A stretch of 64,000 nucleotides of DNA from the IMG/VR virus record IMGVR_UViG_3300044591_001667. The stretch is one strand, 5' to 3'. The DNA comes from an uncultured virus (IMG/VR IMGVR_UViG_3300044591_001667) (lineage: Duplodnaviria; Heunggongvirae; Uroviricota; Caudoviricetes). The notes beneath the pieces were generated by a model. The model worked only from the letters and a program-made list of their open reading frames with translations. It searched no databases and had not been told where the DNA came from. Shown here piece after piece: positions 24,304 to 44,141 of this stretch; positions within the stretch are counted from its first letter, which is position 1; each line of letters begins with the position of its first letter. Both the position numbers and the translations under genes were made by a program.

Positions 24304-24792
24304 CTACGGCAATACTTCGACTGAGGTTCCAGCAAATACAGCCTTGATAAGTTCCTCTGAGTAGAGTCCAGCCTTAACCGCACTGTCGCTCTTGAAGTCT
24401 TCAAGGGCTTGTGCAGTTCCGACACTAATCCAGCCACGCTTGTCATCTCCAGCAGTCACATGACCTAGTTCAATGAGGCGTTCCTGAAGCACCGCAACAG
24501 AGTTACTGTTCTTTGAATACAGAGATTCAAACACAATCTTAGAAAGATAAACAGAAGTTCCATCGGCGATCTGCGATCCGACCACAGATTTTTTACCCCT
24601 GTTCTTCTTCTCAGCTGCTGCACCTGGTTCTTCAACCGCAACAACTTCAGGCTCAACTACGATGGCAACTGGTTCTTCAACCTTGACCATCTCAGGTGCT
24701 GGCTCAGCCATCACAACAGGGAGAGTCTCAGGCTCAACTGCGAGCGCCTTAGGCTCTTCCATCTGATACAAACGCTCTGGTTCTTGACTCAT
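24304..24792 (-). CDS. Protein with E/P-rich N-terminus and peptidoglycan-binding-like C-terminal domain
   Basis: VAVLQERLIELGH..G..TAQALEDFK; next to transglycosylase. Confidence 0.55.
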   Translation of the reverse strand: MSQEPERLYQMEEPKALAVEPETLPVVMAEPAPEMVKVEEPVAIVVEPEVVAVEEPGAAAEKKNRGKKSVVGSQIADGTSVYLSKIVFESLYSKNSNSVAVLQERLIELGHVTAGDDKRGWISVGTAQALEDFKSDSAVKAGLYSEELIKAVFAGTSVEVLP

Positions 24793-24794
24793 AA

Positions 24795-25442
24795 CTATCC
24801 TTTGGTTGGGTATTCAGCAAGGAAAGATTCAAACCTTTCACTGCCTTTATTATAACCGCTAACCTTCCAAGCCGAGAAGTTAGTTCCTTTAGCACTCATG
24901 TGAAAGGCAATCTCTGCATTGGTCACAGGGTCAAGCAAGTCTGAGTTCTTTGCTAGTTCATACTTCTCGATGCGTGCATCTCCAAGTGCTCCTATCATGT
25001 TGATTTGGAACAGCCCGTATGAATTATCACCTGTTCGGGTATTTGAGTTATGCGCTTTAGGACGACCATTAGACTCAGTCATCACCACAGCCCACGCTGT
25101 CTTCAGCCCTTGACCCTCAAACCCAACGAGTTTGAGCAAGTTCTTCAATTCAACTGGGGCTAGAGGTATAGACCTGTCTTCAAACAGCTCTAACTGCATC
25201 TGAATTTTCAGATTTTTTACCTCTTCGAGCTTCTCCTCCTGGGATTTAGCTCCAGCTATCCGTGCTGCTGCCAGATTGACGAGCCGCACTTCTTCCAATA
25301 CAACAGCGGGTGCTGCTGCTCCTGCATTCGTTTCATTAGTTTCTGCACTTGCTGCCGCACTCCATACGACTGCTCCTGCTAGCACTGCTGCTATCACACC
25401 AAACGTAGTAGTTTCGGCATGGCGAAATAAAGGACTTCGCAT
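24795..25442 (-). CDS. Membrane-anchored lysozyme-like/lytic transglycosylase
   Basis: N-terminal hydrophobic segment; AVVMTESNG, DNSYGLFQIN, LLDPVTNA..FSAW. Confidence 0.8.
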   Translation of the reverse strand: MRSPLFRHAETTTFGVIAAVLAGAVVWSAAASAETNETNAGAAAPAVVLEEVRLVNLAAARIAGAKSQEEKLEEVKNLKIQMQLELFEDRSIPLAPVELKNLLKLVGFEGQGLKTAWAVVMTESNGRPKAHNSNTRTGDNSYGLFQINMIGALGDARIEKYELAKNSDLLDPVTNAEIAFHMSAKGTNFSAWKVSGYNKGSERFESFLAEYPTKG

Positions 25443-25545
25443 TTGCTTCTCCTTTGTTAGGGGACATGGGCAGGTTGCTAGTTACTCGCAACCAATGGGC
25501 TAGGACGCCCTTCGTTCTGTCTAATGTGTCGTTTCATCATGAAAA

Positions 25546-25576
25546 CCATAGCACACATGCAGGAAAGTCTGTCAAA
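25546..25576 (-). promoter_or_regulatory. Promoter with TGCAGGAA core in inverted orientation
   Basis: Minus strand TTGACA-gactTTCCTGCAtgtgtgc-TATGGT. Confidence 0.55.
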
Positions 25577-25590
25577 CACAGACACTCCGC

Positions 25591-25986
25591 CTATGCGTAA
25601 GGGAGACTGTGTTCTTCTTCATACCAGCGTGAGCCTAAACTGCTCCCCTTTTTGGTCTTTTTACGCTTGTCAGAGACTTCGAGCATCTCATACCAGACTC
25701 CGTGCAGAGGTTCCGCGAAATCATAACCACGGGTCTTTGTCACCTGCGTCTTGAAATTGTCGTAGTTCATCTCCTCAATGCGTTCGGAAACCCAGAGATT
25801 CAACTGCTCCTTCGTAATGTAGACGCGATACTCATAGTCGCGTCCCTGGAGTTCCACAATTTTTACCCCGAACTTCTTCACAAATCCTTCGAGGGACTTC
25901 TTATCGCGAGCGCGAACTGAAATCTTTGTTCGGTCTTCCTTTGAAACAACCGCACTTACATAACCTGTATCAGTAAATAGCCACAT
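25591..25986 (-). CDS. Hypothetical phage protein
   Basis: Start reassigned to ATG 25986; MWLFT..GYVSAV..VRAR..DYEYR..NYDNFK. Confidence 0.65.
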   Translation of the reverse strand: MWLFTDTGYVSAVVSKEDRTKISVRARDKKSLEGFVKKFGVKIVELQGRDYEYRVYITKEQLNLWVSERIEEMNYDNFKTQVTKTRGYDFAEPLHGVWYEMLEVSDKRKKTKKGSSLGSRWYEEEHSLPYA

Positions 25987-25988
25987 AA

Positions 25989-26135
25989 TTACTCTCTTCC
26001 ACTTAGGACGGCGGACGAAATTGCTACTGCACCAAATGCCACCACGAAATCTGATGCTCCTACAAATGCAGATACAACCGCACTTGCTCCTGCGAGCGCC
26101 GAAATCAGCGCTGTCCAAACAATGTTCTTAGGCAT
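25989..26135 (-). CDS. Small hydrophobic membrane peptide (48 aa)
   Basis: Hand-translated MPKNIVWTALISALAGASAVVSAFVG...; fills gap between neighbours. Confidence 0.5.
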   Translation of the reverse strand: MPKNIVWTALISALAGASAVVSAFVGASDFVVAFGAVAISSAVLSGRE

Positions 26136-26328
26136 TAGTCACTATCTTTCTGTCTGGGCGGGTTCTACCCACCAATCTCTGGGACGGGTCTCTGAACTCA
26201 ATCCCACCTGCTTTAATGGCTTTGCGTGCTGTCCTGTAGGCAACGCCCAACTTCTGGGCTACTGCCTCAACTGCCAAACCATCTGAATACATCTTCGCTG
26301 CTTCTTCAGCAAGGCGCTGACTCTTCAT
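26128..26328 (-). CDS. Small helix-turn-helix protein
   Basis: MYSDGLAVEAVAQKLGVAYRTARKAI. Confidence 0.7.
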   Translation of the reverse strand: MKSQRLAEEAAKMYSDGLAVEAVAQKLGVAYRTARKAIKAGGIEFRDPSQRLVGRTRPDRKIVTNA

Positions 26329-26330
26329 TT

Positions 26331-26822
26331 TTACTCCTCGTCTCTTGGTCTTTGAACTGTCTGCTTCGGGTCGAAACCCATGTCACGCATTTTGCGTTCC
26401 AACTCCTGCCCACCTTCTTCACCTGAAACGGCGCGACCGCTCTTCCAAGTAAAGGGTGTCGTATCTCCCATCGGCAAAACCCATAGGTGATACTGATTCG
26501 CACCATCAACCAACATGGCTTCAGGTGGGAAAATCTCTATTGCTTCTCGCTGTGGACCCGCAAGTTCGTTCTTGATGCGTTGGAAATGACGCCAATCCCT
26601 AATCGCCTTGCGCTGTTGATGTCTGATGCTTAGGTGCATAGGACCATCATGTCCCTGATGCGGTATCAAGTAGGTTCTGAATACAACATAGAACCTGTTC
26701 TGCCACATGGTTTCGCCTTCTTGCAACAAATCTTTTCGAGGCTTGCCATCAACCATCGGCATCGCTTCTACGAACTCGTCCCAAGTCGGCGCTGTTGTGC
26801 CAGCTTTTTTACCCTTTGCCAT
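26331..26822 (-). CDS. Hypothetical phage protein
   Basis: HLSIR..DWRHFQRIKNEL.G..AIEIFP..LVD.ANQYHLW pattern. Confidence 0.7.
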   Translation of the reverse strand: MAKGKKAGTTAPTWDEFVEAMPMVDGKPRKDLLQEGETMWQNRFYVVFRTYLIPHQGHDGPMHLSIRHQQRKAIRDWRHFQRIKNELAGPQREAIEIFPPEAMLVDGANQYHLWVLPMGDTTPFTWKSGRAVSGEEGGQELERKMRDMGFDPKQTVQRPRDEE

Positions 26823-26824
26823 CT

Positions 26825-27004
26825 TCAGCCCCCAATCTTTGGAAGAGGAAGGTTCTTCATGTAAGCCTTCCGCGCTTCTCTTGTTGGTAGAGCGTCTCTT
26901 TCTTCCATCTGCTCTGGAGTCATGTAGGCAAACTTCAATAGGAAGTCCGCGAAATCGCTATCTGAAGTCTGAGATAAGTCTTGACCAAATTTTCCTTTAC
27001 GCAT
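26825..27004 (-). CDS. Hypothetical protein (59 aa)
   Basis: Hand-translated MRKGKFGQDL...PKIGG; TAATG overlap with upstream gene. Confidence 0.5.
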   Translation of the reverse strand: MRKGKFGQDLSQTSDSDFADFLLKFAYMTPEQMEERDALPTREARKAYMKNLPLPKIGG

Positions 27005-27213
27005 TATTTACCCCCAAAGTAGCACTCAACCATGTCGCCCCAGCAATACCCGTTCTCTGTCCACCAAAGGTTCTTGGCAACTGTCCAGATAACTACGAAC
27101 GCGATTACTGCGATTAGACCGAATACAACATTACGGCGCACTACATACTTGCGCTCTTGCTTCCACTTGGAAGTGTCGAACATAAATACTGCCTCTAGCA
27201 CTTTGTCGAACAT
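27004..27213 (-). CDS. Small membrane protein
   Basis: ATG 27213 after ATGACGAAAGGA; one TM helix. Confidence 0.6.
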   Translation of the reverse strand: MFDKVLEAVFMFDTSKWKQERKYVVRRNVVFGLIAVIAFVVIWTVAKNLWWTENGYCWGDMVECYFGGK

Positions 27214-27247
27214 TTTGTTTCCTTTCGTCATTTTGTCTTACTGGATA

Positions 27248-27278
27248 AGTTTATTACATCTTCCTGCACTTTGTCAAG
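27248..27278 (-). promoter_or_regulatory. Promoter with TGCAGGAAG core
   Basis: Minus strand TTGACA-aag-TGCAGGAAGATG-TAATAAACT. Confidence 0.7.
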
Positions 27279-27280
27279 TC

Positions 27281-27454
27281 TTAGTAGCCTCTAATTTCTT
27301 TTATTCTTTGCTCTTCCTTTATGCGCTCCTCATAGCCTTCTAGCCACTCGGTGATTACATCAAGAATACTCACCTGAGACTTTGCTCTACGGCGCACCCC
27401 ACCTGATAGGCGTCGGTATGAGCCATAAACTGCGCTGTCTGGTAGTCCTCGCAT
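27281..27454 (-). CDS. Hypothetical protein (57 aa)
   Basis: Hand-translated MRGLPDSAVYG...EIRGY; ACGACGAAAGGA upstream. Confidence 0.55.
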   Translation of the reverse strand: MRGLPDSAVYGSYRRLSGGVRRRAKSQVSILDVITEWLEGYEERIKEEQRIKEIRGY

Positions 27455-27637
27455 TGTCTTTCCTTTCGTCGTTTCTTCCTTACATAGATAACTTTATACG
27501 AAAGTGCAGGAAAGTCAAGTCCAAATGCAGGAAAATAAAATAAATTTTTTGTGATTAAAACCACATCAAAAATGTCCGAATTGTCTTAACACTTTTGAGG
27601 CTAAGGCTGAGGGGGGCTTTTTAACTTCCCAATAACT

Positions 27638-28222
27638 TTATCTAGTTGGCTGATGGCACTCGTCTTGCTGAACGAAAATCAAAAACTGCCCGCCTGTGTT
27701 GGGGTCAAGTTTCGCCGCGACCTCTAGCGAGCGCCGCACAGCAGCACGCACTGAAGAAACCGTGAATTTTTTACCCTCTAGCTCGTTGTGCAGCGATCCC
27801 AGCGCATACGATCCGCCTGATCCAAAAGCGTAGATCCCAGAAACATCTCTTGCCCAGTCATAGCCTGATCCAATTTCGTATGTAGCACCGTGCACTACGC
27901 AGAGAATTGTTGAGTCCTGACTACCTTTTTCGCCATACTGCACATCATCAAACAATGATTTAAGTTCAGGGATAAATTTAGTTGCTACAAATCTGTCAAG
28001 TTTATTGCCAGAGCAATTGATAGGCGGCGCAGGTGGCTTGAATTGATAAGCCAATAAGTTGATAGCCCGCATGTCACCCGCTGCGCCCAGCAAAAAGGGC
28101 CCATTTTTTACTATCTTTGGATTATCTTTTGGAAGATGGAAAACCCTGTCATCTTCAGTTACTTGGCTGTCACAACCAACCACAGACCAATGAGGTCCTT
28201 GCACAGCCACCATCGTTGTCAT
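27638..28222 (-). CDS. Proteasome-beta/HslV-like Ntn threonine peptidase
   Basis: N-terminal MTT, DSQVT, conserved Lys, GSGGSYALG, DPNTGG. Confidence 0.8.
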   Translation of the reverse strand: MTTMVAVQGPHWSVVGCDSQVTEDDRVFHLPKDNPKIVKNGPFLLGAAGDMRAINLLAYQFKPPAPPINCSGNKLDRFVATKFIPELKSLFDDVQYGEKGSQDSTILCVVHGATYEIGSGYDWARDVSGIYAFGSGGSYALGSLHNELEGKKFTVSSVRAAVRRSLEVAAKLDPNTGGQFLIFVQQDECHQPTR

Positions 28223-28470
28223 TAGTTGTCCCAGAGAGCCTCTCGAAGTAATTCGTCATACTCCGCACCACAATGGGTGTGCTTCTTTGCAGAAATGTCT
28301 TCTTCTTCAATAATTGTGTCTAAATCAAGAACAGCCGTATAGCCTTCTTCATCAAACATAACTACAAGTTTTACCCTGCCATCATTCGTATCATCAACTA
28401 TGGCAACAACAAACTGCTGTCCATCGGAATTCGTATGAACAGAGGAATCAAGAATTTCTATTTCAGACAT
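28222..28470 (-). CDS. Hypothetical acidic protein
   Basis: 82 aa; leaderless TACGAT-N6-ATG. Confidence 0.65.
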   Translation of the reverse strand: MSEIEILDSSVHTNSDGQQFVVAIVDDTNDGRVKLVVMFDEEGYTAVLDLDTIIEEEDISAKKHTHCGAEYDELLREALWDN

Positions 28471-28667
28471 ACCTCAATCGTAGACCTGCTTTAGCAAGGT
28501 GATACGGCGGCACGCGAAACACCTCTTCCCCGCATAGGGTGTGCAGGAAAGGGTGCGGCAGGGGTAGCAATCCCGCCTCATCAGCTCAGCGAGCGCGAAG
28601 CTCCAGCCAGAGCTGGAACTCTAGAATAAAACAAATTTTTACCCCTGATTTGCTGCTGCGAGCGCTG

Positions 28668-28886
28668 TTACTCCTCGACGATGCCAATTTCGTTGGAAAC
28701 TGACTCCAAATCCCACCCGTAGTGACCCAACATAAATTGCTTTGCCAATCTAATGGCAAACTCATCGTCGTCTTCACCTTCGGCACGCAACTCCTCGTTT
28801 AGAACAACTGTCGTCATCATTGAGAAGTAATCACCAACAAACAAAACTGTTCGAGAAAGGTTTATCTCATCTATAGACTCGCTCAT
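28668..28886 (-). CDS. Hypothetical protein
   Basis: ATG 28886 overlapping upstream stop. Confidence 0.6.
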   Translation of the reverse strand: MSESIDEINLSRTVLFVGDYFSMMTTVVLNEELRAEGEDDDEFAIRLAKQFMLGHYGWDLESVSNEIGIVEE

Positions 28887-29245
28887 TATTTCCAACCCCC
28901 TAACCCATCAGCAAAATAAGTTCTTCCTGTCATAGCATCTCCTTCGTGCTTCCACGCCCAATCACAGCAAGGCTTGGCTTTGTCATCAGTTGGGTGAAGA
29001 CCTCTTGGTAGTTTAGCCGCAAGCATCGGGAAAGTCTTCAGCATCTTCAGTATGCACTCGTGGCATAAATTCCACTCCAAATTTTTATCCCCCAACGCTG
29101 GAGCATTGTCTATGAAACCCCCGTAGTAACCCAACTCTTGAAAGTTAAACGCGATGCCATTATCAACAACTTCTTCTTGACTGTGACACTCTTTAGGAAC
29201 ACCGCACGCATCGCAAGTTTGGTAACCATAAAAAGGTTCAGTCAT
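28886..29245 (-). CDS. Hypothetical Cys-containing protein
   Basis: CDAC..GYYGGFID..LCHEC. Confidence 0.65.
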   Translation of the reverse strand: MTEPFYGYQTCDACGVPKECHSQEEVVDNGIAFNFQELGYYGGFIDNAPALGDKNLEWNLCHECILKMLKTFPMLAAKLPRGLHPTDDKAKPCCDWAWKHEGDAMTGRTYFADGLGGWK

Positions 29246-29402
29246 CGTAACAACCGCAACAATCTACGCAGAGTCTGTCATCATCTTTAGAACAATTAGG
29301 ACAGAGATACTGGTCTAGTGTCTTCTCAGGTTCTTTGCAATCTTCGCAAACAATCTTTTCTAACTCTTGAATAGACATGTCCCGCAAGTGTTTTCTTGCC
29401 AT
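29238..29402 (-). CDS. Small Cys-rich zinc-finger protein
   Basis: Start reassigned to ATG 29402; CEDC..CPNC..CVDCC. Confidence 0.55.
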   Translation of the reverse strand: MARKHLRDMSIQELEKIVCEDCKEPEKTLDQYLCPNCSKDDDRLCVDCCGCYDD

Positions 29403-29409
29403 CAGATTT

Positions 29410-29655
29410 TTACTTACCTTCCTGCTCTTGTAAGTATTGAGCAATCTCTTCTCTTGTTGCTCCTGTTGCCTCTTGAAACCGCACCCACAAGTCTCCTGTT
29501 GTTGCATACATTTCCATCATCGCAAACAACTTATCCATTGAATAATCTTTGTGGTTCTTGTGCTTGTTAATTCTTTCTTGAAAGAAAGTTAGTAACATCG
29601 CCATGCCCATCGCAGAAAGTTCTGCTTCTTTTTCATTGAGTTCTAGTGTTGCCAT
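29410..29655 (-). CDS. Hypothetical protein
   Basis: 81 aa; ATGACGAGAGGA upstream. Confidence 0.65.
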   Translation of the reverse strand: MATLELNEKEAELSAMGMAMLLTFFQERINKHKNHKDYSMDKLFAMMEMYATTGDLWVRFQEATGATREEIAQYLQEQEGK

Positions 29656-29682
29656 TTGAGTTGTCCTCTCGTCATTTTTAGG

Positions 29683-29759
29683 TATACACGGAGCAACATC
29701 TTGTTTCCGACCCTCTAGAGTTCAAGTCGTTCAGGTGACCACTGCTGGACTCCGTGTAT
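29683..29759 (-). ncRNA. Candidate structured 5' leader RNA
   Basis: 10-bp closing stem ATACACGGAG/CTCCGTGTAT with internal helices, beginning at predicted start site of promoter at 29795. Confidence 0.35.
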
Positions 29760-29766
29760 GAAAGTA

Positions 29767-29816
29767 ATCATTTCACTTTCCTGCAACTTTGTCAAGTTTA
29801 TTTTGCTGGCGTGTCG
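29767..29816 (-). promoter_or_regulatory. Promoter with TGCAGGAAAG core and upstream CGACACGCC
   Basis: Minus strand CGACACGCC-N12-TTGACA-17 nt-AATGAT. Confidence 0.65.
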
Positions 29817-30009
29817 GCGAGCGCCACCACCACCATACCCACCACCACCGACATCTTTGCATCATTGAAAAGTTATCTGCATCTTGCAGGACCTGGAGGA
29901 ACTGAACGATCAAGAATTTTTACCCCCTGATTACGATCCGCGGCCGCAGCTTCCCAACAAAAGAAAAACTCCCGCATCTTTCGACACGGGAGTTCTTGTT
30001 CTTCGACGC

Positions 30010-30228
30010 TTAGTTATTACTCCACGCTCCGAAGTCAATGTCACTTGCTTCACGACGGGAGTCTGCCCAAGCCATCTCTCCGTAGTAATACTTCTTCTTC
30101 TTTGTTTCCTTGTTTGTAACTGCCCAGTAGTCCTGATAAAACTCTGCTGTCCCTACTGAAACTGATACTAAGTCGCTGTCATAGACAACTTCCCAGTTCT
30201 TTACCTTAGTAACACTTGGCTTTGCCAT
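30010..30228 (-). CDS. Hypothetical protein
   Basis: 72 aa; ACGACGAAAGGA upstream. Confidence 0.65.
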   Translation of the reverse strand: MAKPSVTKVKNWEVVYDSDLVSVSVGTAEFYQDYWAVTNKETKKKKYYYGEMAWADSRREASDIDFGAWSNN

Positions 30229-30255
30229 AACAATCCTTTCGTCGTTGTTAAAAGT

Positions 30256-30284
30256 AATCTAACACTTTCCTGCATCTTTGTCAA
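30256..30284 (-). promoter_or_regulatory. Promoter with TGCAGGAAAG core
   Basis: Minus strand TTGACA-aagaTGCAGGAAAGtgt-TAGATT. Confidence 0.75.
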
Positions 30285-30411
30285 GCATCTTCGTTCATGT
30301 CACCAAATAGCGGCGCATCATTAAAAAGTTGTTTGCACCTGGTGCAGGTTTTTTGCTGACGCAGCCTCAGCTCCTGGAATTTTTACCCCGCATCTCCGCA
30401 CGCATCTGGGC

Positions 30412-30443
30412 AAAAGAAAAACCCCCGCATCTCTGCGGGGGCT
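30412..30443 (-). terminator. Intrinsic terminator
   Basis: CCCCCGCA/TGCGGGGG stem with U tract on minus strand. Confidence 0.75.
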
Positions 30444-30468
30444 TCACTCCTAATTGGGGGGTTAGGTT

Positions 30469-30828
30469 TTACTTGGCGACTAGCACCACATACTTGCTAA
30501 GGGTCTGTGTTGCTTCGTATGCCTCTGGGAAGGCGGTCTTTAGGGCTTCGGTGTCAATACCGCGTCGTTCGCGGTGTGAAACCTCTAGGCGGAGAGTTCC
30601 GTCTGGGAGAAGTCCCTGTGTAGCCTCACCAAGATAAGACTTGATTTGTGCCTCTAGTTCTTTCTTTTCTTTTTCCATCTTTGTGATGAGGTCACGCTTT
30701 TCAATGAACTGCTCAATCACAATCTGGGTTGTCTTGTCGAGATAAACCGCATTTGCCTTTGTCTCAACTGTGGTTGTTACTTCTACTACTGGTGTTGCTA
30801 TTGTCTTTGTAACTGTTGCCTTAGACAT
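30469..30828 (-). CDS. Hypothetical coiled-coil phage protein
   Basis: 119 aa; coiled coil then IDTEALK..FPEAY. Confidence 0.65.
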   Translation of the reverse strand: MSKATVTKTIATPVVEVTTTVETKANAVYLDKTTQIVIEQFIEKRDLITKMEKEKKELEAQIKSYLGEATQGLLPDGTLRLEVSHRERRGIDTEALKTAFPEAYEATQTLSKYVVLVAK

Positions 30829-30906
30829 AACTAAGACTCCTTTTCATTTTGTCATTTCTCTCGGAGACTTCCTCAGAGAGGTTCTCAGGTTTCCCTGATA
30901 GATAAA

Positions 30907-30972
30907 ACATTACACGACCTTCCTGACATCTGTCAAGTCAAGTCAAGCACTTTTTTGTAACGAATTGGTAAC
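30907..30972 (-). promoter_or_regulatory. Promoter with GTTAC-N6-GTTAC box and TCAGGAAGG core
   Basis: Minus strand GTTAC-caattc-GTTAC, TTGACA at 30936, TAATGT. Confidence 0.7.
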
Positions 30973-31088
30973 AACTTTTGATGCTTTTGATGGTTGATGG
31001 GCTACACCATCTGAACAAGTGAGTTCACCAAAGGTATCTACCCACCCAAAGTCTTGATGGAGTTCCCAACCGCATCTAACGCAAACGC

Positions 31089-31199
31089 TTAGCATTTACC
31101 GCACCCTGCGTGATGGGTGTAATCACTTTCCTTGATGGAGAACGGGCTTCCGCATCTCCAACAATGTATGTAAATAATGACGGGCTTTCTTTTCGCCAT
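31089..31199 (-). CDS. 36-aa zinc-finger microprotein
   Basis: Hand-translated MAKRKPVIIYIHCWRCGSPFSIKESDYTHHAGCGKC; own promoter (TTGACA 31254) and ACGACGAAAGGA. Confidence 0.55.
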   Translation of the reverse strand: MAKRKPVIIYIHCWRCGSPFSIKESDYTHHAGCGKC

Positions 31200-31277
31200 T
31201 TCATACTCCTTTCGTCGTTGGAAGTATTCTTGCACTTCCCTGCACTCTTGTCAAACACATTTTGCTGGGCGTGTCGC

Positions 31278-31760
31278 TTAGTGGTGGAAACTCACCGCAA
31301 CTAGGAACTGCATCTCAGGTGCGAGTTCGCAACGCTCTCTGAAGGCTTTGAGGTTTGCTGACCAAGTTTCCAAGTCATAGATACCTGTGTCCATAGTCCA
31401 ACTGTCTTCCAAGATGCTGGCAATCTTTCTAACCTCGTAGGTTCGGAAGTCGTTATCTGTGTAGCCACCTGACCGAAACGGATCGTATCTATCAACAGCA
31501 TTTGCAAGATCGAAATTTTTTACCCTGTCGTAAAGTCTCTTCAGCTCTTCCTCGCGGTAGCCAAGAAACTCCTTGAACTTCATCTGGCCAACGGTTTCTG
31601 AATACGCGACCGCACTCTTACCATCAAACTCATCAACAAGGTCGTGGTAGTCCGACCAATGAGGTGTAGGGGTTTCATTATCAAGAAGACCTGACACATG
31701 GTTCGCCGCGTCTTCTGCTGTCTCTGCTTCAACCAACATCAACTGAATAACTCTCGCCAT
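31278..31760 (-). CDS. Hypothetical phage protein
   Basis: 160 aa; WSDY..QFLVAVSFHH. Confidence 0.7.
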   Translation of the reverse strand: MARVIQLMLVEAETAEDAANHVSGLLDNETPTPHWSDYHDLVDEFDGKSAVAYSETVGQMKFKEFLGYREEELKRLYDRVKNFDLANAVDRYDPFRSGGYTDNDFRTYEVRKIASILEDSWTMDTGIYDLETWSANLKAFRERCELAPEMQFLVAVSFHH

Positions 31761-31772
31761 TTTTTTACTCCC

Positions 31773-32222: not shown

Positions 32223-32365
32223 TATTTTTCCTTTCGTCGTTTTGTTTTAGGTTGGAAGCCCCGCCTCTTGGTTTCAGACGGGGCTTCCGTTTTTACCCTA
32301 TCCCTGTTTGGACAATGCGTTGGAAGGACGCTAACAAGGTTTCGGGTTGAGAGTTCGCCGTATTG

Positions 32366-35321: not shown

Positions 35322-35341
35322 TTCCCTATGTCCTTTTCTCT

Positions 35342-36906: not shown

Positions 36907-36995
36907 GCCGTTTTTACCCTTCCGTTTGTAAATCTAATCTTACCTTGCCGTTGGCATTGGGTGGGGCTTTTTACCCCACCCACGCCGTGCCGTTC

Positions 36996-37715
36996 TTAGA
37001 CAATCATCTCGCTGATGTCCTCGAACTTCTCAACAACTTGCTCTGTCTGCTCGACCAACTCGCCGACCTTCTCCGCCTTGTTCGGGCAGTCGTCAAACCA
37101 ATCTTCAGCATCATCATCCCAAGAGCAACGGCATCCGTCCTCGTTATCCCGAGCCTTGTAGTCAGCGTGGCTGTCTGGGATGTCCCACTCCTCGGCAACA
37201 ATCAACTCGCCGTCTTCGCTGACATACCGCACGCCCCAGCCTTGCTCCTCTTCGCAATCAAACTCGAAGGTAAGTTCTGGGTGCTGTTCAACCATTGCTC
37301 GGTAAGCACCTTCGGCAGGAGACCAAGCCGTAGAGAACTGATAACGAATGTTGCCTTTAGAACTGTTGTCCTCGAAGTAGAGGTCGCTACAGTCCCACTT
37401 AGTTCCCCAGTTGCGGATGTTCCAGTCATACCAACCATCTGACTTGAACTGCATAGAGACAGCCATCTTCTCTTCAACACTTAGTTCGTCATAGCCCTCT
37501 GGCTTGTAATCGCTTGCCCCAAAGTAAAGTTGCTTGTTCTCTGGTTCTATGAAGTTCCAAAATGAAAGTTCTTTTTCTGAAACTTCTTCTTTTGTTTCAT
37601 TTGTTTTCCAGTCCATCCAGTAAGTCGTGTGAGGCTTGGTCGCCTTCTCAACAAACTTCTTGAGGTCTTCTTCTTTTCCTGAAACAGTCATACTATTGAA
37701 TACCCAGTTTGGCAT
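36996..37715 (-). CDS. DUF1281/YubB-like ferredoxin-fold protein
   Basis: MPNWVFN, WYDWNIRNWGTKWD, FSTAWSP. Confidence 0.75.
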   Translation of the reverse strand: MPNWVFNSMTVSGKEEDLKKFVEKATKPHTTYWMDWKTNETKEEVSEKELSFWNFIEPENKQLYFGASDYKPEGYDELSVEEKMAVSMQFKSDGWYDWNIRNWGTKWDCSDLYFEDNSSKGNIRYQFSTAWSPAEGAYRAMVEQHPELTFEFDCEEEQGWGVRYVSEDGELIVAEEWDIPDSHADYKARDNEDGCRCSWDDDAEDWFDDCPNKAEKVGELVEQTEQVVEKFEDISEMIV

Positions 37716-37763
37716 TGTTTATCCTTTCGTCGTTTTTGGATAGTTCCCTTCGGAACAGTTTTA

Positions 37764-38018
37764 TTATTTCACATCTTTGCATTTATCGCAAGTGCTCATA
37801 CAACAATCGCAATAGTTTTCGTGAGAGTCGTGGGAACAGCAATCTGTATTGACAGCAACAAAATCCCACTTGGCTGTGATTTCATAATCCTCGAAGTCAT
37901 CTGAAATCCAGTCATCAAGTTTGTTGATGGCGTCGTCTTCACTCTCTGCCTCGCCCACCTCAACCACATACTCTCTGGTGAGGGTCGCATAGATTTTATA
38001 GGTCGCCATCAAAGACAC
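37764..38018 (-). CDS. Hypothetical protein with Cys-rich tail
   Basis: VEVGEAESEDDAI; start uncertain (ATG 38009 likely). Confidence 0.55.
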   Translation of the reverse strand: MSLMATYKIYATLTREYVVEVGEAESEDDAINKLDDWISDDFEDYEITAKWDFVAVNTDCCSHDSHENYCDCCMSTCDKCKDVK

Positions 38019-38193
38019 CTACGCCTTCTTTGAAATCCTCAATGAGGTCTGACAACAACCCATCAAGAAAGTTTTCGGCACGACCTTCTAGTTCGTCAGC
38101 AACTTTTTCCCACTGCTCATCTGTGATGAACGCAGAAATCATTCCCTCGAAATCATCTTTCGAGATGGTGCTTATGTTCACTACCTTTGCCAT
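37996..38193 (-). CDS. Hypothetical protein
   Basis: 65 aa; ITDEQWE; ACGACGAAGGGA upstream. Confidence 0.6.
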   Translation of the reverse strand: MAKVVNISTISKDDFEGMISAFITDEQWEKVADELEGRAENFLDGLLSDLIEDFKEGVGVFDGDL

Positions 38194-38402
38194 TTGTATC
38201 CCTTCGTCGTTTTACTTGGCATAACAAACATTACATCATCTCTCTGACAAAAGCAAGTCAGGGCGTTTCGTTGATGTCAGCAAATGCGAGGTCGAGAAGA
38301 AGAAGTTGTTTGGAAGTTTGGACTGGCCTGGGGCCCTGGCGATTTTGAGCGTGAGTAAAAATCTGAGTTGTTAGGTTTTTGCTGTGGTTCTGTGGTTTTG
38401 AG

Positions 38403-38582
38403 TTATTTGGAAGTTGAATCCTGATCGGCCGATTCACTGATCGCTTCAAGATTTTTTACCCCACGGGTACGACGACGCTTCGTGCGGCGGTCTTCAAAGA
38501 CCTGCGCTTTCTGGTTCTGCACGTAGTTTCCAGGCACGCCTTTGATGCGACGCTTGAGTTCATCCCGTTCTTTTTTACCCAT
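38403..38582 (-). CDS. Small basic protein
   Basis: Start reassigned to ATG 38582 (TATTAT-N6-ATG); FEDRRTKRRRTR. Confidence 0.5.
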   Translation of the reverse strand: MGKKERDELKRRIKGVPGNYVQNQKAQVFEDRRTKRRRTRGVKNLEAISESADQDSTSK

Positions 38583-38645
38583 GCATAAATAATAAACCCG
38601 TGGGCTCGCAGTGAGCTCCACGGGCTTACCGTAGTTATTTGAATG

Positions 38646-39059
38646 TCAGATGCTCGCCGCAGCGGATCTGGCTTCCTCCACCATCTCACGGGTGAAGTAC
38701 GTGACATCGCTTATGGCACGCCGTTCCATATTTTTACCTCCGTACACCCAACTACCCGCGCCGCCAAAGAACGCTGAGCTGTGATCCGTTCCAACTTCCC
38801 AATAATCTTTTTGTGTGCGGTTAGTTGAAATTTCAAATACGTAGATGCGGTCATGCCGCTCTAAGTCCATGCCGACTATCTTGCCGCTCTCTAACTTGTA
38901 GTGCGGGTGGTCAAGAAGTCTGAACCACATAAAGTTCATTGCATCGGCTGGACTACTCGCCGCATATATCTCACCGAAGTTAGACTTCAATCCCTCGCCG
39001 TTAATATTTTCAAACACGCATTCAGGTGCGGCGTGGTACAACTTACTGGGTACTTTCAT
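38646..39059 (-). CDS. Small ADP-ribosyltransferase-fold-like protein
   Basis: LYHAAP..NINGEGL..EIYA..VFEI pattern of ART/Tpt1-like folds. Confidence 0.5.
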   Translation of the reverse strand: MKVPSKLYHAAPECVFENINGEGLKSNFGEIYAASSPADAMNFMWFRLLDHPHYKLESGKIVGMDLERHDRIYVFEISTNRTQKDYWEVGTDHSSAFFGGAGSWVYGGKNMERRAISDVTYFTREMVEEARSAAASI

Positions 39060-39176
39060 CCGTCTCCTCGTCCCGTGCCGCATCAGCCTTTTCTAGATGC
39101 GACTCAATCCAATCCTCGTGGCTAGTTCCTAGCCCGTCCCGTTCTTGGCTCTCAAGCCACTCAACATATCCACGCA

Positions 39177-39482
39177 TTACGCACGCCCGCAATCTTCGTA
39201 CGGGTACTCATGCGGTTCTAGGTCTTCGCAGGAACAGAACCCAAACAGTTCTACTTGCGTGCCGTGCGTCAGATCCGCTAGCTCGCTGTATGACATCACA
39301 ACATCTTCTCCTTCTTCGACCAGCCGCTGCCCCTTGCCTGTTCCCAAGCCGACGCCGTATGTATCAAAGTGTGGTTCACACATATTGCCCCACGGGCCGT
39401 ATGTTGTCATGCCGTCGAATCTTGCCTTCTCAGTGCAGAAGTCGCATTGAGGTAAAGCCGCTACTTTTGTAATTGTTGACAC
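39177..39482 (-). CDS. Zinc-binding hypothetical protein
   Basis: CDFC..A.FDG.T..GPWGNMC..H..GLGTGKGQ. Confidence 0.65.
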   Translation of the reverse strand: MSTITKVAALPQCDFCTEKARFDGMTTYGPWGNMCEPHFDTYGVGLGTGKGQRLVEEGEDVVMSYSELADLTHGTQVELFGFCSCEDLEPHEYPYEDCGRA

Positions 39483-39569
39483 GGGTGTCCTTCCGTCATT
39501 TTGTTAGAGCGGTTGCTCTGATAATTATTGTAGTACCTCTCTGACAAACATGCAACTCTTAAATATAAA

Positions 39570-40030
39570 AAGTTATTTCCGTGTCGCGCCGCTCTGCAGC
39601 TCTAGGCCGCACGCCAAAGTTATTTGAAAGTTCGACAGCTTCGGGCCCGATCCGATCAGATTTTTTTACCCCCCGTAAAAGCCTGGCACCTGGTGCTGCA
39701 CCTGGGATGGGAAAAAGTTATTTGGAAGTTGCAAGCTGAAGGGCCCTTTTTAGTTTCGCGGCCGCTAGGTTGCGAAACCTAATCCTACTCGGTCTGTCAA
39801 GTTTTGTCAATGCTGCGGCTGAAGTTGTTCGTAAGTTGTTTAGCGATCTGGAGCTGGCCAGCTTCTGGGGGGTAAAAATTATTGATCTGGCGGCGGGCCG
39901 TCATCCCAAGTTGTTTGGATGTTGGCGGCGATCTGCAGCTACGTGCTGGTGACCTTCCTGCTTTTTCGTGCGAACGTGCGAATTAAGCTGGCCGCTGTAG
40001 CTTGGCAAAGTTATTTGGATGTTGAGATCT
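39570..40030 (+). repeat. Dispersed AAGTT(A/G)TTTG(G)A(A/T)GTT repeats about 100 bp apart
   Basis: Copies at 39617, 39715, 39822/39833, 39908, 40008; also 38303, 38400. Confidence 0.65.
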
Positions 40031-40150
40031 GGACTTAAGCTGCAGCTAAACCTCCCTGCATTAATACCGTTGTAATTTAGGTGTAAGTTACTACGTGACA
40101 TGCCGTTGTATTTATACGCACGCACAGGCGCATGCCGTTAGTATTTAAGA

Positions 40151-40336
40151 ATGATTTCGATTCTTGCGCATGCCGACCCGTCAGGTGACTGGGGTCTACA
40201 CCACGTCTTACCGTTCCTCGCCGCTTTCGCTGGAACCGTTGGGACATACCTCGTTCTAGGGCGAGCCGTTATTCGGAAGTGGTGGAAGCGTGCCGTTGGG
40301 TTGCTGCGCAGCTTTTACACACGCCGTCCGCATTAA
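40151..40336 (+). CDS. Small membrane peptide
   Basis: One TM helix plus basic tail; leaderless TAGTAT-N6-ATG. Confidence 0.45.
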   Translation: MISILAHADPSGDWGLHHVLPFLAAFAGTVGTYLVLGRAVIRKWWKRAVGLLRSFYTRRPH

Positions 40337-40467
40337 GTTCCTCGCCGCACCAGAAACAATCCGTTGTCATAGCAGGTCGTCCATCTCACTCACGCCGTCT
40401 TTTGGCACAGGTTCTTTAGTGCAGTCGCCCTCTTGCCGTCCCATGCCGTTCTCCTCTTGACAAACCG

Positions 40468-40511
40468 TTAATTACTAACTATGCTAGCACCTAGCATAGT
40501 TTAGTAATTAA
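40468..40511. promoter_or_regulatory. Near-perfect 44-bp palindrome overlapping a consensus + strand promoter
   Basis: TTAATTACTAACTATGCTAG-cac-CTAGCATAGTTTAGTAATTAA; TTGACA(40457)-17-TATGCT. Confidence 0.6.
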
Positions 40512-40714
40512 TCTATAAATCCCATGCCGCTAATGTTGCGAACAGGCTGCGGCTCATTTGATTCAAGTTTTAACAATCCGTTAACCATCTCCGCTGCTTC
40601 ATTGGCGCGAGCCGTTACCCGAATGTGTTCATCTCTTGTGCGGGCCAGCTTGATGTCGTTCTCGAGCCGCTCTGCATGCAGCTGTGCTAATTCCAAAAGT
40701 TGTTGGTTTGTCAT
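40508..40714 (-). CDS. Hypothetical protein
   Basis: 68 aa, ATGA overlap with upstream gene. Confidence 0.55.
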   Translation of the reverse strand: MTNQQLLELAQLHAERLENDIKLARTRDEHIRVTARANEAAEMVNGLLKLESNEPQPVRNISGMGFID

Positions 40715-41712
40715 CGTAGCTCGTCGAGCTCCTCGTCTGAGATGGTTGGTTGGTCAAGTTGTTCCGTTGTTGGTACTGCAGCTCCAGCTGTTGTTGGGGG
40801 GGTAAAAATTTTAGGCGGATCCTGATCCAGCTCCAGAACAACTTCCGCATCTTGTACGGAAGTGTCCGCAGCTGCGAGCTCGCCTTGAATAATGTTGGCT
40901 CCTGCTTTCAGGCGGGCAAGCCGTTCAGCAATAATTTCAGCGGGCGTACGGGAATCCTTTAACTCCACGCCGATGTCAATCTCCATACCTGCTCGCACGC
41001 CAGCACGGTCAAGTATCTCCGTTGCCGCTTTGAGGCGGACGGGTTCAGAGACAGCGGTCTCCATAAGTTCTTCAAGTTTGTCCACAGCGTATGGGGCAGA
41101 CTGTAGAAGTTTTGCGCGAGCCCGTTCGATGTCCACGCCTGTCTTTTTTACCCCGCCGAGGTGGAGGCGACACAAGCCGTCATCTTTAATCCGTCCCGAT
41201 GACCACAGCATGCAGCGCATACCCTCTGGGGTCTGGGCTCGACAGCGGGTAGGTAATGTTCTCGGCGCTCGCCGATCAGTAGGCGGGCCGCCAGCTTCCT
41301 GCTCTTTTATCCAAGCGCGGGTTGCCGCTAGTACCCAAGGGGGTACAAGTTTGCAAGCCTCTTGGTCAACAACCAGATCGAGGCCCGTCAAGTAGTCGGA
41401 GTTATTCTGAAGTGGTTCTGACAGCAGAGCTCGTTTTGCTGAGATGCTGATGAGACGCCGTTCCTTCATCTGCTCAAGCGAGCGAGCCTCGATGAGGTTG
41501 GTGGCGTGTCCGTTAGATGTGTAGACGGGAACCCATTGGTAGTTGTTGCCACGTAGGATGGCACGGTTCTCGTAGGTATCCTCAACGATGCCGCGGTCAT
41601 GCTCGATGAGTCCGAGTTCGGACAAATCGGGCCGCATATCGGAGGCCGTTTGAATTAAAGGTTCGTCTGGTTCTTTGTCAGACGGTTCATCAAAAAGTTC
41701 GAGGTCACTCAT
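40711..41712 (-). CDS. Probable terminase small subunit
   Basis: RC.A..G.RC..LC.LH.G Zn motif followed by VRLKAATEILDRAG, common in actinophage small terminases. Confidence 0.55.
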   Translation of the reverse strand: MSDLELFDEPSDKEPDEPLIQTASDMRPDLSELGLIEHDRGIVEDTYENRAILRGNNYQWVPVYTSNGHATNLIEARSLEQMKERRLISISAKRALLSEPLQNNSDYLTGLDLVVDQEACKLVPPWVLAATRAWIKEQEAGGPPTDRRAPRTLPTRCRAQTPEGMRCMLWSSGRIKDDGLCRLHLGGVKKTGVDIERARAKLLQSAPYAVDKLEELMETAVSEPVRLKAATEILDRAGVRAGMEIDIGVELKDSRTPAEIIAERLARLKAGANIIQGELAAADTSVQDAEVVLELDQDPPKIFTPPTTAGAAVPTTEQLDQPTISDEELDELR

Positions 41713-41727
41713 TTTTTTACCCCCGAA

Positions 41728-41913
41728 CTAGTCCAAGCCGAGGTGCGCTCTCAGTTCCTGACGCTTGTCGGCAAGTTGGGCTGCGTAGTACGCTTTTTCC
41801 GTTTTGGTACGGTACTCCGAGTTACGCAGCCTCTCCACCAAAGCCTCAATCTCGGCTTTAAGTTCAAGCTCTTTTTCGACGTGAGCTTCTAGTTGCTCTG
41901 GTGTCATTGCCAT
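41728..41913 (-). CDS. Small coiled-coil protein
   Basis: 61 aa in operon context. Confidence 0.55.
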   Translation of the reverse strand: MAMTPEQLEAHVEKELELKAEIEALVERLRNSEYRTKTEKAYYAAQLADKRQELRAHLGLD

Positions 41914-42230: not shown

Positions 42231-42446
42231 GTTATCTCTCTAAGTAGGGTTTTCTAGTTTCTACTTGAAATATAAAATAACATACATAGTTGAAAAGTTT
42301 TTTTCAAAAATGCTGTGATAAACACACTCTCTATAAAGGAAGTTACAACCCAACTGGGTTGAAATGAGCGTGATTTAATACCTTTTTTGGTCTTGTACGA
42401 CACATAAAAAATGCTGAATAAAAAGTGTTTTTATATGGCGTGTCGT

Positions 42447-42632
42447 TCACACATCGAGGAATTCTTCAAGCTTTTTTATAAGACGGCTTGAGTCATCTAC
42501 AAATTGGTTTTTGCCTTTGGGCCAAGCACTCTCATTGAGTTCTCGGTGTCGGTGCCACCCACCTGCTCGAGCAATTCGAAGAGCGGTTATGGCTTCCTCT
42601 TTGGTCAGAGTGACTTTTTCCTTATCGCTCAT
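42447..42632 (-). CDS. Hypothetical protein
   Basis: 61 aa ORF. Confidence 0.5.
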   Translation of the reverse strand: MSDKEKVTLTKEEAITALRIARAGGWHRHRELNESAWPKGKNQFVDDSSRLIKKLEEFLDV

Positions 42633-42748
42633 TGGACTTAACCCTTTGCTGCTTGGCTTCCTGAAATTTCTTTTTGCGCTCTATGATTGATTTTTGTCTG
42701 ACCTTTTGGATAGCCAACTCTTCCTTTGTCAGGACAACTACGGTCCGA

Positions 42749-43045
42749 CTACTCATCGGGGGTGTCTGGCTTTTCGAGGATAGGCAACCGTTTCAAGATA
42801 TCGGGATCATCACCTGCAAGGACATCGATGGCTCGACGAAGACCAAGGGTGTAGAAAGTTTTATCGTCGTCACCCATGGTCGCTTCCCACTCTTGGACCA
42901 TCTCTTCGAGCTTTTTGATTTTCTCCAAGATGACCTCATTGTCAATCTGCTTATCCAATAGAGAGATTTTTGAATAGGCTTCAGGTGTTATCTCGTTGTT
43001 TTTGACCATCTCGGTAAGGGCTTTATTTAGGTCTTGAAATTCCAT
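42749..43045 (-). CDS. Hypothetical protein
   Basis: 98 aa; YTLGLRRAIDV. Confidence 0.6.
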   Translation of the reverse strand: MEFQDLNKALTEMVKNNEITPEAYSKISLLDKQIDNEVILEKIKKLEEMVQEWEATMGDDDKTFYTLGLRRAIDVLAGDDPDILKRLPILEKPDTPDE

Positions 43046-43524
43046 TAGCGTATCTCCTCAAGGCAGGTGTCACAGAGTAGGGCATCGAATCCTGTTGCTT
43101 CATAGGAGACTGTCTTGTACTCGGTAACTGCTACAGGTGAGATTCTGACATCCCCTGCTGGAGTTGCTTGAATCCCACATTTGTCACATTTTACTTCGGT
43201 AATCCACTCAACGTTTTTGTCTGCGCTGAAGGATGCAGCGATGGCTCGAGTCAGAGCGTGCTCTGCTCCTGGGCCACTGGTCTTTCGTAGGAACAGTCGG
43301 GTGTCCTCAACGAGGACGACTGGTCTGATGTTTTTGCATGGGCAGAAGTATCGAGTTGGTTGGCACTGGATTACCCCTGCTTCTGTCGAATGTTTGTTGA
43401 CTGCGTGACCACAGAGGCAGACTCTTTTGTCACGACTTGGTTTACGAGTCAGAGCTTCATCTGTCTCAACTGCTTCTTCTGGGTTTATGCCTAGAAGTAC
43501 TAATGCGTCTCTAGCGTTCGTCAT
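43045..43524 (-). CDS. Cys-rich zinc-binding protein
   Basis: CLCGH..H..C..CPC and CDKC..CDTC. Confidence 0.65.
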   Translation of the reverse strand: MTNARDALVLLGINPEEAVETDEALTRKPSRDKRVCLCGHAVNKHSTEAGVIQCQPTRYFCPCKNIRPVVLVEDTRLFLRKTSGPGAEHALTRAIAASFSADKNVEWITEVKCDKCGIQATPAGDVRISPVAVTEYKTVSYEATGFDALLCDTCLEEIR

Positions 43525-43741
43525 TGTTGTCTCTTCCGTCTCTCATGAAGTTCCAGCCCATGATGTTTCTGAACTGGACATCCGTTTCAGCTTTTTCAAT
43601 GAGTTGACCAAACATCTTCTCAAGGAACTCGCTTTTTCTTTTAGCTTCTTTGTACTCTCGAACGGCACTGATGATGAACACTGCAAACAGAACAGATAGA
43701 AAATTCACTGTCCCAAGGATTAAAATATCTACCCAGTTCAT
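43511..43741 (-). CDS. Small membrane protein
   Basis: N-terminal TM helix. Confidence 0.6.
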   Translation of the reverse strand: MNWVDILILGTVNFLSVLFAVFIISAVREYKEAKRKSEFLEKMFGQLIEKAETDVQFRNIMGWNFMRDGRDNNDER

Positions 43742-43962
43742 CGCTCATCCACCTTCAAAAGTCCATGAGCCATCAATTCACTAACCACAGATTCGGCATC
43801 TCTGGTTGCGATTTTTAACCACTCGTCTGCATCAAGTGGAACCCTTGTAGGGAACCACTCTTTCATCAAACGACCAGCAACTATGTACTTAACTCTCTCA
43901 GGAGTTATCGTCATTCCGTCTATCATAGATTTATTATTACCTACCGACTTAGTACTTGTCAA
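43738..43962 (-). CDS. Hypothetical protein
   Basis: ORF behind TTGACT-17-TACACT promoter (44020-43992); start uncertain. Confidence 0.55.
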   Translation of the reverse strand: MTSTKSVGNNKSMIDGMTITPERVKYIVAGRLMKEWFPTRVPLDADEWLKIATRDAESVVSELMAHGLLKVDER

Positions 43963-44141
43963 CCCTAAATCCCCTTCTTTTTTGACTCTTCAGTGTACTA
44001 TACACTATATCTTAAGTCAACTATACACTAGTCTTGAAGTTTTTAAGTTTCAACTCATTTCTCTGGGGGGGTAAATTTTTTTTTCATACGCGTCTAGGGA
44101 TTTAGTTAAAACTTATAAACTATAACATAGTTTTTAGTTGT

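Follow-up and report, generated by a model that had tools for sequence, protein, structure and literature searches.

A short word that recurs about once per kilobase, nearly always pointing the same way and lying both within and between genes, raises the question of what reads it and to what effect. Such a word occurs in the uncultured virus record IMGVR_UViG_3300044591_001667, of which one stretch of 64,000 nucleotides (the window) was analysed; its coding-strand form is GGGTAAAAA. A preliminary description made from the letters alone had taken it for oriented binding sites serving ejection, packaging, silencing or protection; binding sites turned out to be the best reading and silencing the likeliest of these four uses, while a polarity set by ejection or packaging was weakened. 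On the sequence comparisons below, the word is most likely the site of a phage DNA-binding protein, and its co-occurrence with a 66-aa helix-turn-helix (HTH) protein makes this HTH the candidate reader.

A polar word concentrated in one arm

The exact word, TTTTTACCC on the plus strand, was found 19 times in the window, 18 times at 24590-41714 and once at 6114, and its reverse only twice (39870 and 40800), giving an 18:2 strand bias at 24.6-41.7 kb (p=0.0004). Dinucleotide shuffles of the whole window (n=100) yielded a mean of 0.61 and a maximum of 4 copies, and those of region 24501-41800 (n=300) a mean of 0.14 and a maximum of 2, bearing out the earlier remark that the word is commoner than chance allows. 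The copies had a median spacing of 946 bp, with a single 4.25-kb gap over vWA-like/AAA genes (32290-36543), and no exact word lay between 41722 and 64000. The 8-mer core GGTAAAAA defined 22 forward sites, 12 within genes and 10 intergenic. When 147 sites pooled from 8 contigs, one GGAAAAAA lineage included, were aligned, conservation was limited to about 10 positions with the extended consensus RGGTAAAAAW, and none was seen in the flanks, including at any upstream base.

The preliminary map held up well: its 18 plus-strand copies were recovered at coordinates off by 0-3 bases, its near matches were present at 27005, 28368, 36840 and 38731, and its single head-module copy is the exact one at 6114, which is probably incidental. 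Two of its three reverse copies are exact (39870 and 40800), whereas that at ~44065 is inexact and reads TTTACCCCCC.

The word might simply reflect chance or codon use for Gly-Lys-Lys and Val-Lys, and the few copies outside the arm are indeed mostly on the sense strand within genes. However, codon resampling predicted 0.9 in-gene copies (maximum 5 in 1000 resamplings) against the 12 observed, in an analysis where 2 of 30 hand-set gene frames were wrong, neither of those genes containing a site. Moreover, 10 copies are intergenic, site positions are retained in relatives, and the word is read in both the GKK/GKN and VK frames, as first described. Codon resampling and region shuffles thus refute this origin.

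The sites and surrounding elements are as follows, the terminase small subunit being abbreviated TerS.

24590..41722, minus strand: polar-word zone, 18 exact forward copies, 22 with the 8-mer core
40711..41712, minus strand: TerS homologue, marking the inferred left end
41714..41722, minus strand: exact site in the Shine-Dalgarno-to-ATG spacer of TerS, ~45-55 bp inside the inferred left genome end
41145..41153, minus strand: exact site within TerS
40800..40808, plus strand: reverse copy where TerS encodes its C-terminal region (KIFTP), a reverse sigma-A-like promoter lying ~315 bp upstream
40457..40485, plus strand: that reverse promoter-like site, TTGACA-17-TATGCT, in 11 of 15 contigs
39870..39878, plus strand: non-coding reverse copy, 60 bp upstream of the first early promoter-like site
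39663..39671, minus strand: exact site, intergenic
38731..38739, minus strand: AGGTAAAAA variant site, with further copies at 36840 and 25214
38572..38580, minus strand: exact site close to the start of a 44-aa gene
38453..38461, minus strand: exact site across the stop codon of the 44-aa gene
36968..36976, minus strand: exact site, intergenic, in a predicted hairpin (z -4.3)
36911..36919, minus strand: exact site 5 nt ahead of a start codon
36543..36551, minus strand: exact site, intergenic
36234: TGGTAAAAA variant site
32290..32298, minus strand: exact site, intergenic, poorly retained in relatives
32084..32092, minus strand: exact site in a gene (RVK)
31517..31525, minus strand: exact site in a gene (RVK)
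30380..30388, minus strand: exact site after a predicted terminator and ahead of the next promoter-like site (-35 at 96 bp)
29917..29925, minus strand: exact site after a predicted terminator and ahead of the next promoter-like site (-35 at 122 bp)
28636..28644, minus strand: exact site, intergenic
27768..27776, minus strand: exact site in the HslV-like gene (GKK)
26806..26814, minus strand: exact site directly past a start codon (GKK)
26328..26336, minus strand: GAGTAAAAA near match across the start codon of the 66-aa HTH gene, exact in the relative G003
26128..26328, minus strand: 66-aa HTH gene, candidate reader (PF13384, E 1.4e-5)
25860..25868, minus strand: exact site in a gene (GVK)
24590..24598, minus strand: last exact site of the zone, in a gene (GKK)
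24265..24289: bidirectional terminator-like hairpin closing the early unit
39560..41775: leading ~2.2 kb with palindromic words unpurged (GATC 4.5/kb, AGCT 9.5/kb, TTAA 5.5/kb)
24300..39560, minus strand: early arm purged of 4-5 bp palindromes except ~50 bp around the word
6114..6122, minus strand: exact copy outside the zone, in a 1394-aa head gene (GKK)

Purifying selection and spread in relatives

Four-fold degenerate positions inside the sites were identical in 13/13, 10/10 and 13/13 cases (36/36) in three pairwise comparisons that share the window and are not independent, versus 0.67-0.73 elsewhere. Together with the in-gene excess over codon resampling, this supports purifying selection on the nucleic acid rather than the protein, as the preliminary description had supposed. 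Site positions were retained in relatives of 84-86% nucleotide identity, and the site at the TerS start occupied the same position in 11 of 14 motif-bearing contigs. The uneven distribution proposed for the window recurred in the complete relative G003, with 21 copies in 20 kb and 4 in the remaining 116 kb.

Among 80 related loci, 14 short or duplicate ones were left out of an ATPase tree, in which lineages with GGTAAAAA, AGTAAAAA or GGAAAAAA arrays fell into one clade (32 of 66 rows used, support 100/97); the clade also includes a lineage with a non-polar TGCTAYYAAG word. The closest GenBank record, DSL-LC01, has no exact copy. Across 19 loci, the variant G2>A was seen 43 times against 5.2 expected, a count inflated by GGAG ribosome-binding sites, and G3>A 11 times against 3.5, while A>G at the four inner A positions matched expectation (12 versus 11.6). 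Because G>A is enriched and inner A>G is not, a protein readout fits better than RNA pairing.

Two further words, GCGCTCGC and AACGACGAAAGGA (an extended ribosome-binding word resembling a start-associated sequence, SAS), are likewise enriched in the early arm (24300-39800). The sister lineage (L159-L160 of G020, 9.7-26.8 kb; also L024 and L026) has ~45 TGCTAYYAAG words, which point either way and lie both within genes and across promoters; it also has a Cro/CI-type HTH gene, and its palindromes are unpurged.

A 66-aa HTH protein as candidate reader

TerS and HTH proteins had been named earlier as candidates for binding the word. Here, TerS and a 164-aa tandem HTH also occurred in relatives without the word, and a different, 66-aa HTH tracked it. 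The 164-aa protein is disfavoured as reader, since its helices are near-identical between GGTAAAAA and TGCTACTAA lineages and Pumpernickel has a homologue. The 66-aa protein has a helix AYRTARKAI and a basic tail RLVGRTRPD, of which YRTARKAI and the tail are invariant in GGTAAAAA lineages; an AlphaFold2 model gave three helices (pLDDT 81) with weak fold matches (best E 0.2).

In a profile search of 21 contigs, an HTH with helix YR[TC]ARK was found in 10/10 contigs carrying a GGTAAAAA, AGTAAAAA or GGAAAAAA array; of the other 11, two had a distant form with another helix and nine gave no hit, these nine being mostly fragments and one ending ahead of the region. Of the distinct homologues that had 5 kb or more of DNA upstream, a set chosen through the helix pattern itself, 46/50 were accompanied by a polar word of this class. 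Where C or T preceded the Tyr of the helix, the word was AGTAAAAA (8/8 homologues), and RGTAAAAA overlapped the HTH start in 16/31 loci versus 92/509 other starts. The sister lineage, which lacks the 66-aa HTH, has its different dispersed word in both orientations and a Cro/CI-type HTH instead. A search among cultured phages gave no hit for the 66-aa HTH, a separate local search gave a distant copy in DSL-LC01, and a search for a host locus returned none.

Genome setting and inferred terminal repeat

The window encodes major head protein and portal families and is part of a large actinophage: after DSL-LC01 (72% capsid identity), its nearest records are Microbacterium and Arthrobacter phages of 186-195 kb. 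Its DNA was present in lake-water sequencing runs, one of its proteins lies on a 139,266-bp contig, and close relatives give maps of about 136 kb. Gene 1 of cultured relatives, which in Cece carries the annotation TerS, has its homologue in the window at 41712-40711; 11 of 12 records carry this gene at two places. Pumpernickel has a terminal repeat of 19,963 bp, with gene 1 beginning at base 62; in three other cultured relatives gene 1 begins at bases 63, 63 and 50. Because of this position of gene 1 in relatives with a terminal repeat, we place the left genome end of the window near 41,770; the array would begin ~50 bp inside it and span the early arm. A long terminal repeat probably holds the early genes here as well, and the array-bearing stretch probably enters the cell first. 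Read depth over 22500-42499 in 4 of 24 listed runs, taken as contig means only, was somewhat higher on contigs within the zone in three of them.

A 24-kb end duplication in G002 was considered as a terminal repeat and rejected as a chimera of two strains (72-85% identical blocks); this 160.7-kb record (L091-L099) has ends from two strains. Where DSL-LC01 and Pumpernickel carry the terminase large subunit, the window has a non-coding gap (22600-23300), and in G003 that gene lies elsewhere (58.1-59.6 kb). A 3125-aa open reading frame (ORF) of the head module (8613-17990, minus strand; 54% identical to the G003 and 84% to the G002 copy) has a DEDD exonuclease domain and, by eye, NUDIX-, kinase- and WYL-like segments, and is probably a co-injected polyvalent protein. 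Other genes encode a Tad3 anti-Thoeris family protein (60108-60518, PF25185), a tryptophan halogenase (52412-53995), an HslV-like peptidase (27638-28222), and an AAA ATPase beside a 589-aa gene (32366-35321).

Orientation apparently follows local transcription

The reverse copy in TerS lies ~300 nt downstream of the 40457 reverse promoter in 7 of the 11 contigs having that promoter, and in most relatives a further reverse copy stands next to the convergent terminator where the early unit ends. These two placements fit an orientation tied to local transcription better than one tied to the genome axis.

This bears on packaging or ejection, in which TerS or a translocase would define, duplicate or pull in the terminal repeat through the word as KOPS or Chi sites are used. 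The idea suits an array whose first site overlies the TerS start, ~50 bp in from the inferred left end, and whose last lies close to the inferred right end, with reverse copies clustered at both arm ends. It accounts poorly for the TerS reverse copy behind a reverse promoter, for Pumpernickel, Cece, A3Wally and Racecar, where a TerS homologue is accompanied by 0-1 copies of the word class per strand, for flanking islands (below) whose symmetry is unlike a Chi-type stop, and for the non-polar word of the sister lineage. We consider it improbable.

A promoter element for an alternative or phage sigma factor, or a start-associated sequence, is less probable still. Polarity and the several sites that come after terminators would agree with it, and GGGTAA resembles SigB/SigF -10 boxes. 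Yet no upstream base is conserved in the 147 aligned sites, 12/22 sites are in genes and only 2/22 lie within 5 nt before a start, sigma-A-like promoters are already present in the arm, and the variants AGTAAAAA and GGAAAAAA lose the box.

Two other words are arranged around sites or promoters. AAYAACTT is nearly absent within 30 bp of the sites and peaks at +40..60 and, inverted, at -40..-60, a distance (~40-60 bp on both sides) that matches the island width. TGCAGGRA, a separate word, occurs between the -35 and -10 boxes of 8 sigma-A-like promoters, oriented either way, and is a likely classical operator of another regulator:

36395, 31254, 30284, 29795, 27518, 25575 (27575-25575 region) and 27277, minus strand; 23261, plus strand: TGCAGGRA

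A mirror hairpin in relatives

In 18 relative loci, a strong hairpin (z -3.5 to -7.0) whose loop presents the reverse word stands where the early unit ends:

L193:12585-12642, L208:12626-12683, L196:8850-8907 and 15 other loci: mirror hairpin

The stems differ among lineages, whereas the loop mirrored its own lineage's variant in 18/18 cases, that of the GATAAAAA lineage included, and the next loop base predicted the commonest 5' base of the lineage's forward sites (18/18). Double-sided change was seen at 7/9 consensus pairs, and G-U pairs favoured the early-sense strand by 6-13 kcal/mol in 7/16 hairpins, while in 4/16 the opposite strand folded better by about 2-4 kcal/mol. The hairpin was absent ahead of the terminal terminator (24265..24289) in the window and also in G007, which are among 11 loci with at least 3 kb of downstream DNA that lack it and retain the sites.

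The word might then be a tag on mRNA, with the hairpin RNA loop AUUUUUACC(C/U) pairing to it and blocking translation or triggering decay. The loop-variant match, the paired stem changes and the strand preference would follow from such pairing, and sense-strand polarity and overlap with ribosome-binding sites fit too. However, the window and G007, both without the hairpin, are identical to each other at 13/13 four-fold sites (p about 0.005). Further, wobble-compatible inner A>G is at expectation while pair-breaking G>A is enriched 3-8 fold, the duplexes are weak (-7 to -12 kcal/mol), and the better folding of the opposite strand in 4/16 means that the loop may be an ordinary site of an opposing unit; the DNA islands and the sites between terminator and promoter are also left unexplained. 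Antisense pairing is thus unlikely as the main function, and we read the hairpin as an accessory rather than the main reader.

Forward sites in hairpin loops were also considered and rejected (5/22 versus 20/60 controls). The non-coding DNA at 39780-40510 folded unremarkably (z -0.9), and no Rfam family was found at 22-45 kb.

Restriction words survive selectively around the sites

The arm at 39.5-24.3 kb is purged of palindromes, with a sharp onset in many relatives, and the leading 2.2 kb is unpurged. Within 60 bp of a site, which covers 14% of the DNA, lay 20/23 AGCT, 13/17 GATC and 7/9 CCWGG; these islands were symmetric (27 upstream, 24 downstream) and were also found around in-gene sites. 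Over 23 chosen loci, the near versus distant observed/expected ratios were 1.10 vs 0.09 for AGCT, 1.13 vs 0.12 for CCWGG and 0.97 vs 0.22 for GCWGC, with partial relief of GATC (0.36 vs 0.02), which many lineages ban outright; sham anchors gave 0.13-0.15. At the same loci ACGT (0.13), GTAC (0.04), ATAT (0.03), TTAA (0.16) and GAWTC (0.18) stayed purged near sites. The relieved words are mostly cytosine-methylation targets. In-gene AGCT near sites numbered 57 versus 35-41 expected with amino acids fixed. An excess over neutrality was only partly upheld, at 1.4-1.9 fold with amino acids fixed and about 1.0 under a dinucleotide model. No islands were seen around the TATTTATT, TCCACTTT and TTTCATTT words of outer lineages, and independent losses among relatives were too few to couple gain or loss of word and island. 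GATC, GGCC and GCSGC are denser in the leading stretch (39560-41775) than over the remaining genome (8/8 contigs for GGCC and GCSGC), and GATC and/or AGCT are wholly missing over 11-21 kb in L018, L031, L033, L041, L066, L072, L074 and others, including some whole contigs.

The sites might be selected for entry protection, with a co-ejected virion protein or an abundant host protein loading at the word and shielding nearby restriction sites. Such a shield would suit an early arm purged like T5 first-step DNA, the return of AGCT, CCWGG and GCWGC to about neutral near sites, and the in-gene AGCT excess. But a plain shield should relieve all words and leaves the selectivity of the relief unexplained; moreover, several sites have no such restriction word nearby, island words are barely better retained than other 4-mers (40/65 vs about 0.50), and some lineages with the array leave AGCT unpurged. 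Protection at entry is therefore doubtful.

A more elaborate scheme, which we also regard as improbable, would have ~100-bp protein beads seeded by the HTH coat the whole repeat of a lytic phage, with the co-evolving mirror hairpin RNA guiding or titrating the reader. In the producing cell the beads would locally block host cytosine methylation, so that nearby AGCT, CCWGG, GCWGC and GATC would arrive in the next host unmethylated and able to escape methyl-directed nucleases, while words open to conventional restriction cleavage at entry would stay purged. According to PMC6329791, lake microbes carry AGCT and GCWGC as m4C and GATC as m6A targets; in its actinobacterial draft genomes no methylated motif was found, which speaks against methylation for an acI host. 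BAAAA methylation in Acidimicrobiia is described in bioRxiv 2021.05.08.442635; the word contains BAAAA, as does every A4 tract, and only 20/113 forward BAAAA of the arm follow GG.

Proposed mechanism

We tentatively favour stoperator-like protein sites by which the 66-aa HTH and partners would damp the early arm, and rate this reading as not quite an even chance. A phage protein would bind DNA containing GGGTAAAAAT and form with partners a complex about 100 bp wide; the 66-aa HTH, whose gene lies 15 kb along the early arm, is the likeliest one. Its sites are spread across the inferred terminal repeat, apparently aligned with local early transcription, and lie within genes, downstream of terminators and across a few ribosome-binding sites, that of the HTH gene among them. 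As the HTH accumulates, they would become one-way roadblocks damping the early programme of host RNA polymerase, and the survival of AGCT, CCWGG, GCWGC and GATC near sites would be a by-product of occupancy. A DNA-level reading is favoured because the islands are symmetric, also within genes, because AAYAACTT keeps its spacing, and because two sites lie between terminator and promoter.

Several observations weigh against damping by the HTH. As to the sites, a forward copy lies 520-680 bp upstream of TerS in six contigs, outside the inferred repeat; no reverse promoter was detected for the 39870 reverse copy, and in two contigs the TerS reverse copy lacks one. No forward site overlaps a promoter, the nearest downstream -35 being at 96 bp, and the word sits over the ribosome-binding site of TerS, a late-needed gene. 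The GGAG contribution to G2>A and the pattern-based choice of homologues count here too. As to the protein, HTH and word are common to kin, the ATPase tree implying about one gain and one loss, and the word changes to GATAAAAA (L196) or GGAAAAAA while the helix stays the same, the L196 HTH being 87% identical to a GGTAAAAA-lineage protein. The array is weak or absent in 4/50 loci, and L249 passes the threshold though its top word differs. A 66-aa protein alone is unable to cover 100 bp, and it would be absent at DNA entry unless packaged.

Comparison with known systems

KOPS and Chi are short polar G-rich words, as is the word here. It runs mostly in one direction, with reverse copies that recur at set places, one after a reverse promoter; it differs in that its orientation appears transcription-linked, its sequence varies among phage lineages and its flanking effect is symmetric.

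The repressor-stoperator system of Cluster A mycobacteriophages (L5, Bxb1), as described in PMC6550527, likewise has many asymmetric sites, mostly in one orientation to transcription, both genic and intergenic, with lineage-specific variants and a site near the reader's own gene, which here is that of the candidate. Against the 13-bp sites of Cluster A, those of the window are 9-10 bp and confined to the inferred terminal repeat, none lies over a promoter, restriction-word islands flank them, and no relation to Rep was detected for the candidate reader, a single HTH of 66 aa. Pfam, PHROGs, PDB-sequence and fold searches gave neither HTH a hit to the Cluster A immunity repressor, and the 78 ORFs of the window and 62 of G003 yielded no repressor homologue either. 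Neither a large integrase nor parAB was seen, G003 having only a 227-aa serine recombinase; one related record is classed as provirus by IMG/VR. The array shares the asymmetric, oriented sites of Cluster A and is not a member of it, differing in site length, repressor homology and promoter operator. It would work like the known stoperator kind, and among the literature matches listed there is no published description of the word or array.

T5 and BF23, according to PMC10644984 and bioRxiv 10.1101/866236, have a long direct terminal repeat (inferred here) with early genes, and the first-entering DNA is purged of restriction words; leading-region site avoidance is also described for Murciavirus in PMC12455610. 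Unlike the repeated signals of T5, which cluster at the injection stop, one word is here dispersed ~once per kb, and the purge is locally and selectively relieved. PMC7302621 describes repeated intergenic motifs together with SAS and extended SAS (ESAS) in Microbacterium clusters EC, EF, EG and EI and mycobacteriophage cluster K, which like the word are oriented, of function not known, and found in lytic actinophages. Those repeats are 13-30 bp, intergenic and at a fixed distance from starts, whereas more than half of the sites here are genic and most are not start-associated, only 2/22 being located at a ribosome-binding site. Some long terminal repeats contain Lsr2 genes, according to PMC10066036.

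Four cultured relatives (Pumpernickel, Cece, A3Wally and Racecar) lack an array of this word class. The first 18 kb of Cece (L344) and A3Wally (L345) carry a bipartite GTTTAGTG-N6-YTCTTGCG cassette, mostly right after terminators (7+2 copies in Cece, 6+1 in A3Wally), a cultured analogue. Racecar (L346, 820-17282) has 24 polar TTACAAAA words, 22 of them intergenic and mostly just past stop codons, followed by a hairpin, and CCWGG is nearly absent there.

Implications

The literature surveyed does not establish how early genes are shut off in large lytic actinophages whose terminal repeats span 15-20 kb. To that question the array contributes a candidate reader of 66 aa, a site of 10 bp, natural variants of specificity and a mirror RNA, which could all be tested without phage culture. 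If the bead reading were true, the tolerated restriction words in the islands would be the genome's record of a protein footprint from late infection. The selective islands also indicate that restriction-site avoidance is readable at 100-bp resolution as a record of the occupants of phage DNA, and they separate words rescued by bound protein from words that are not.

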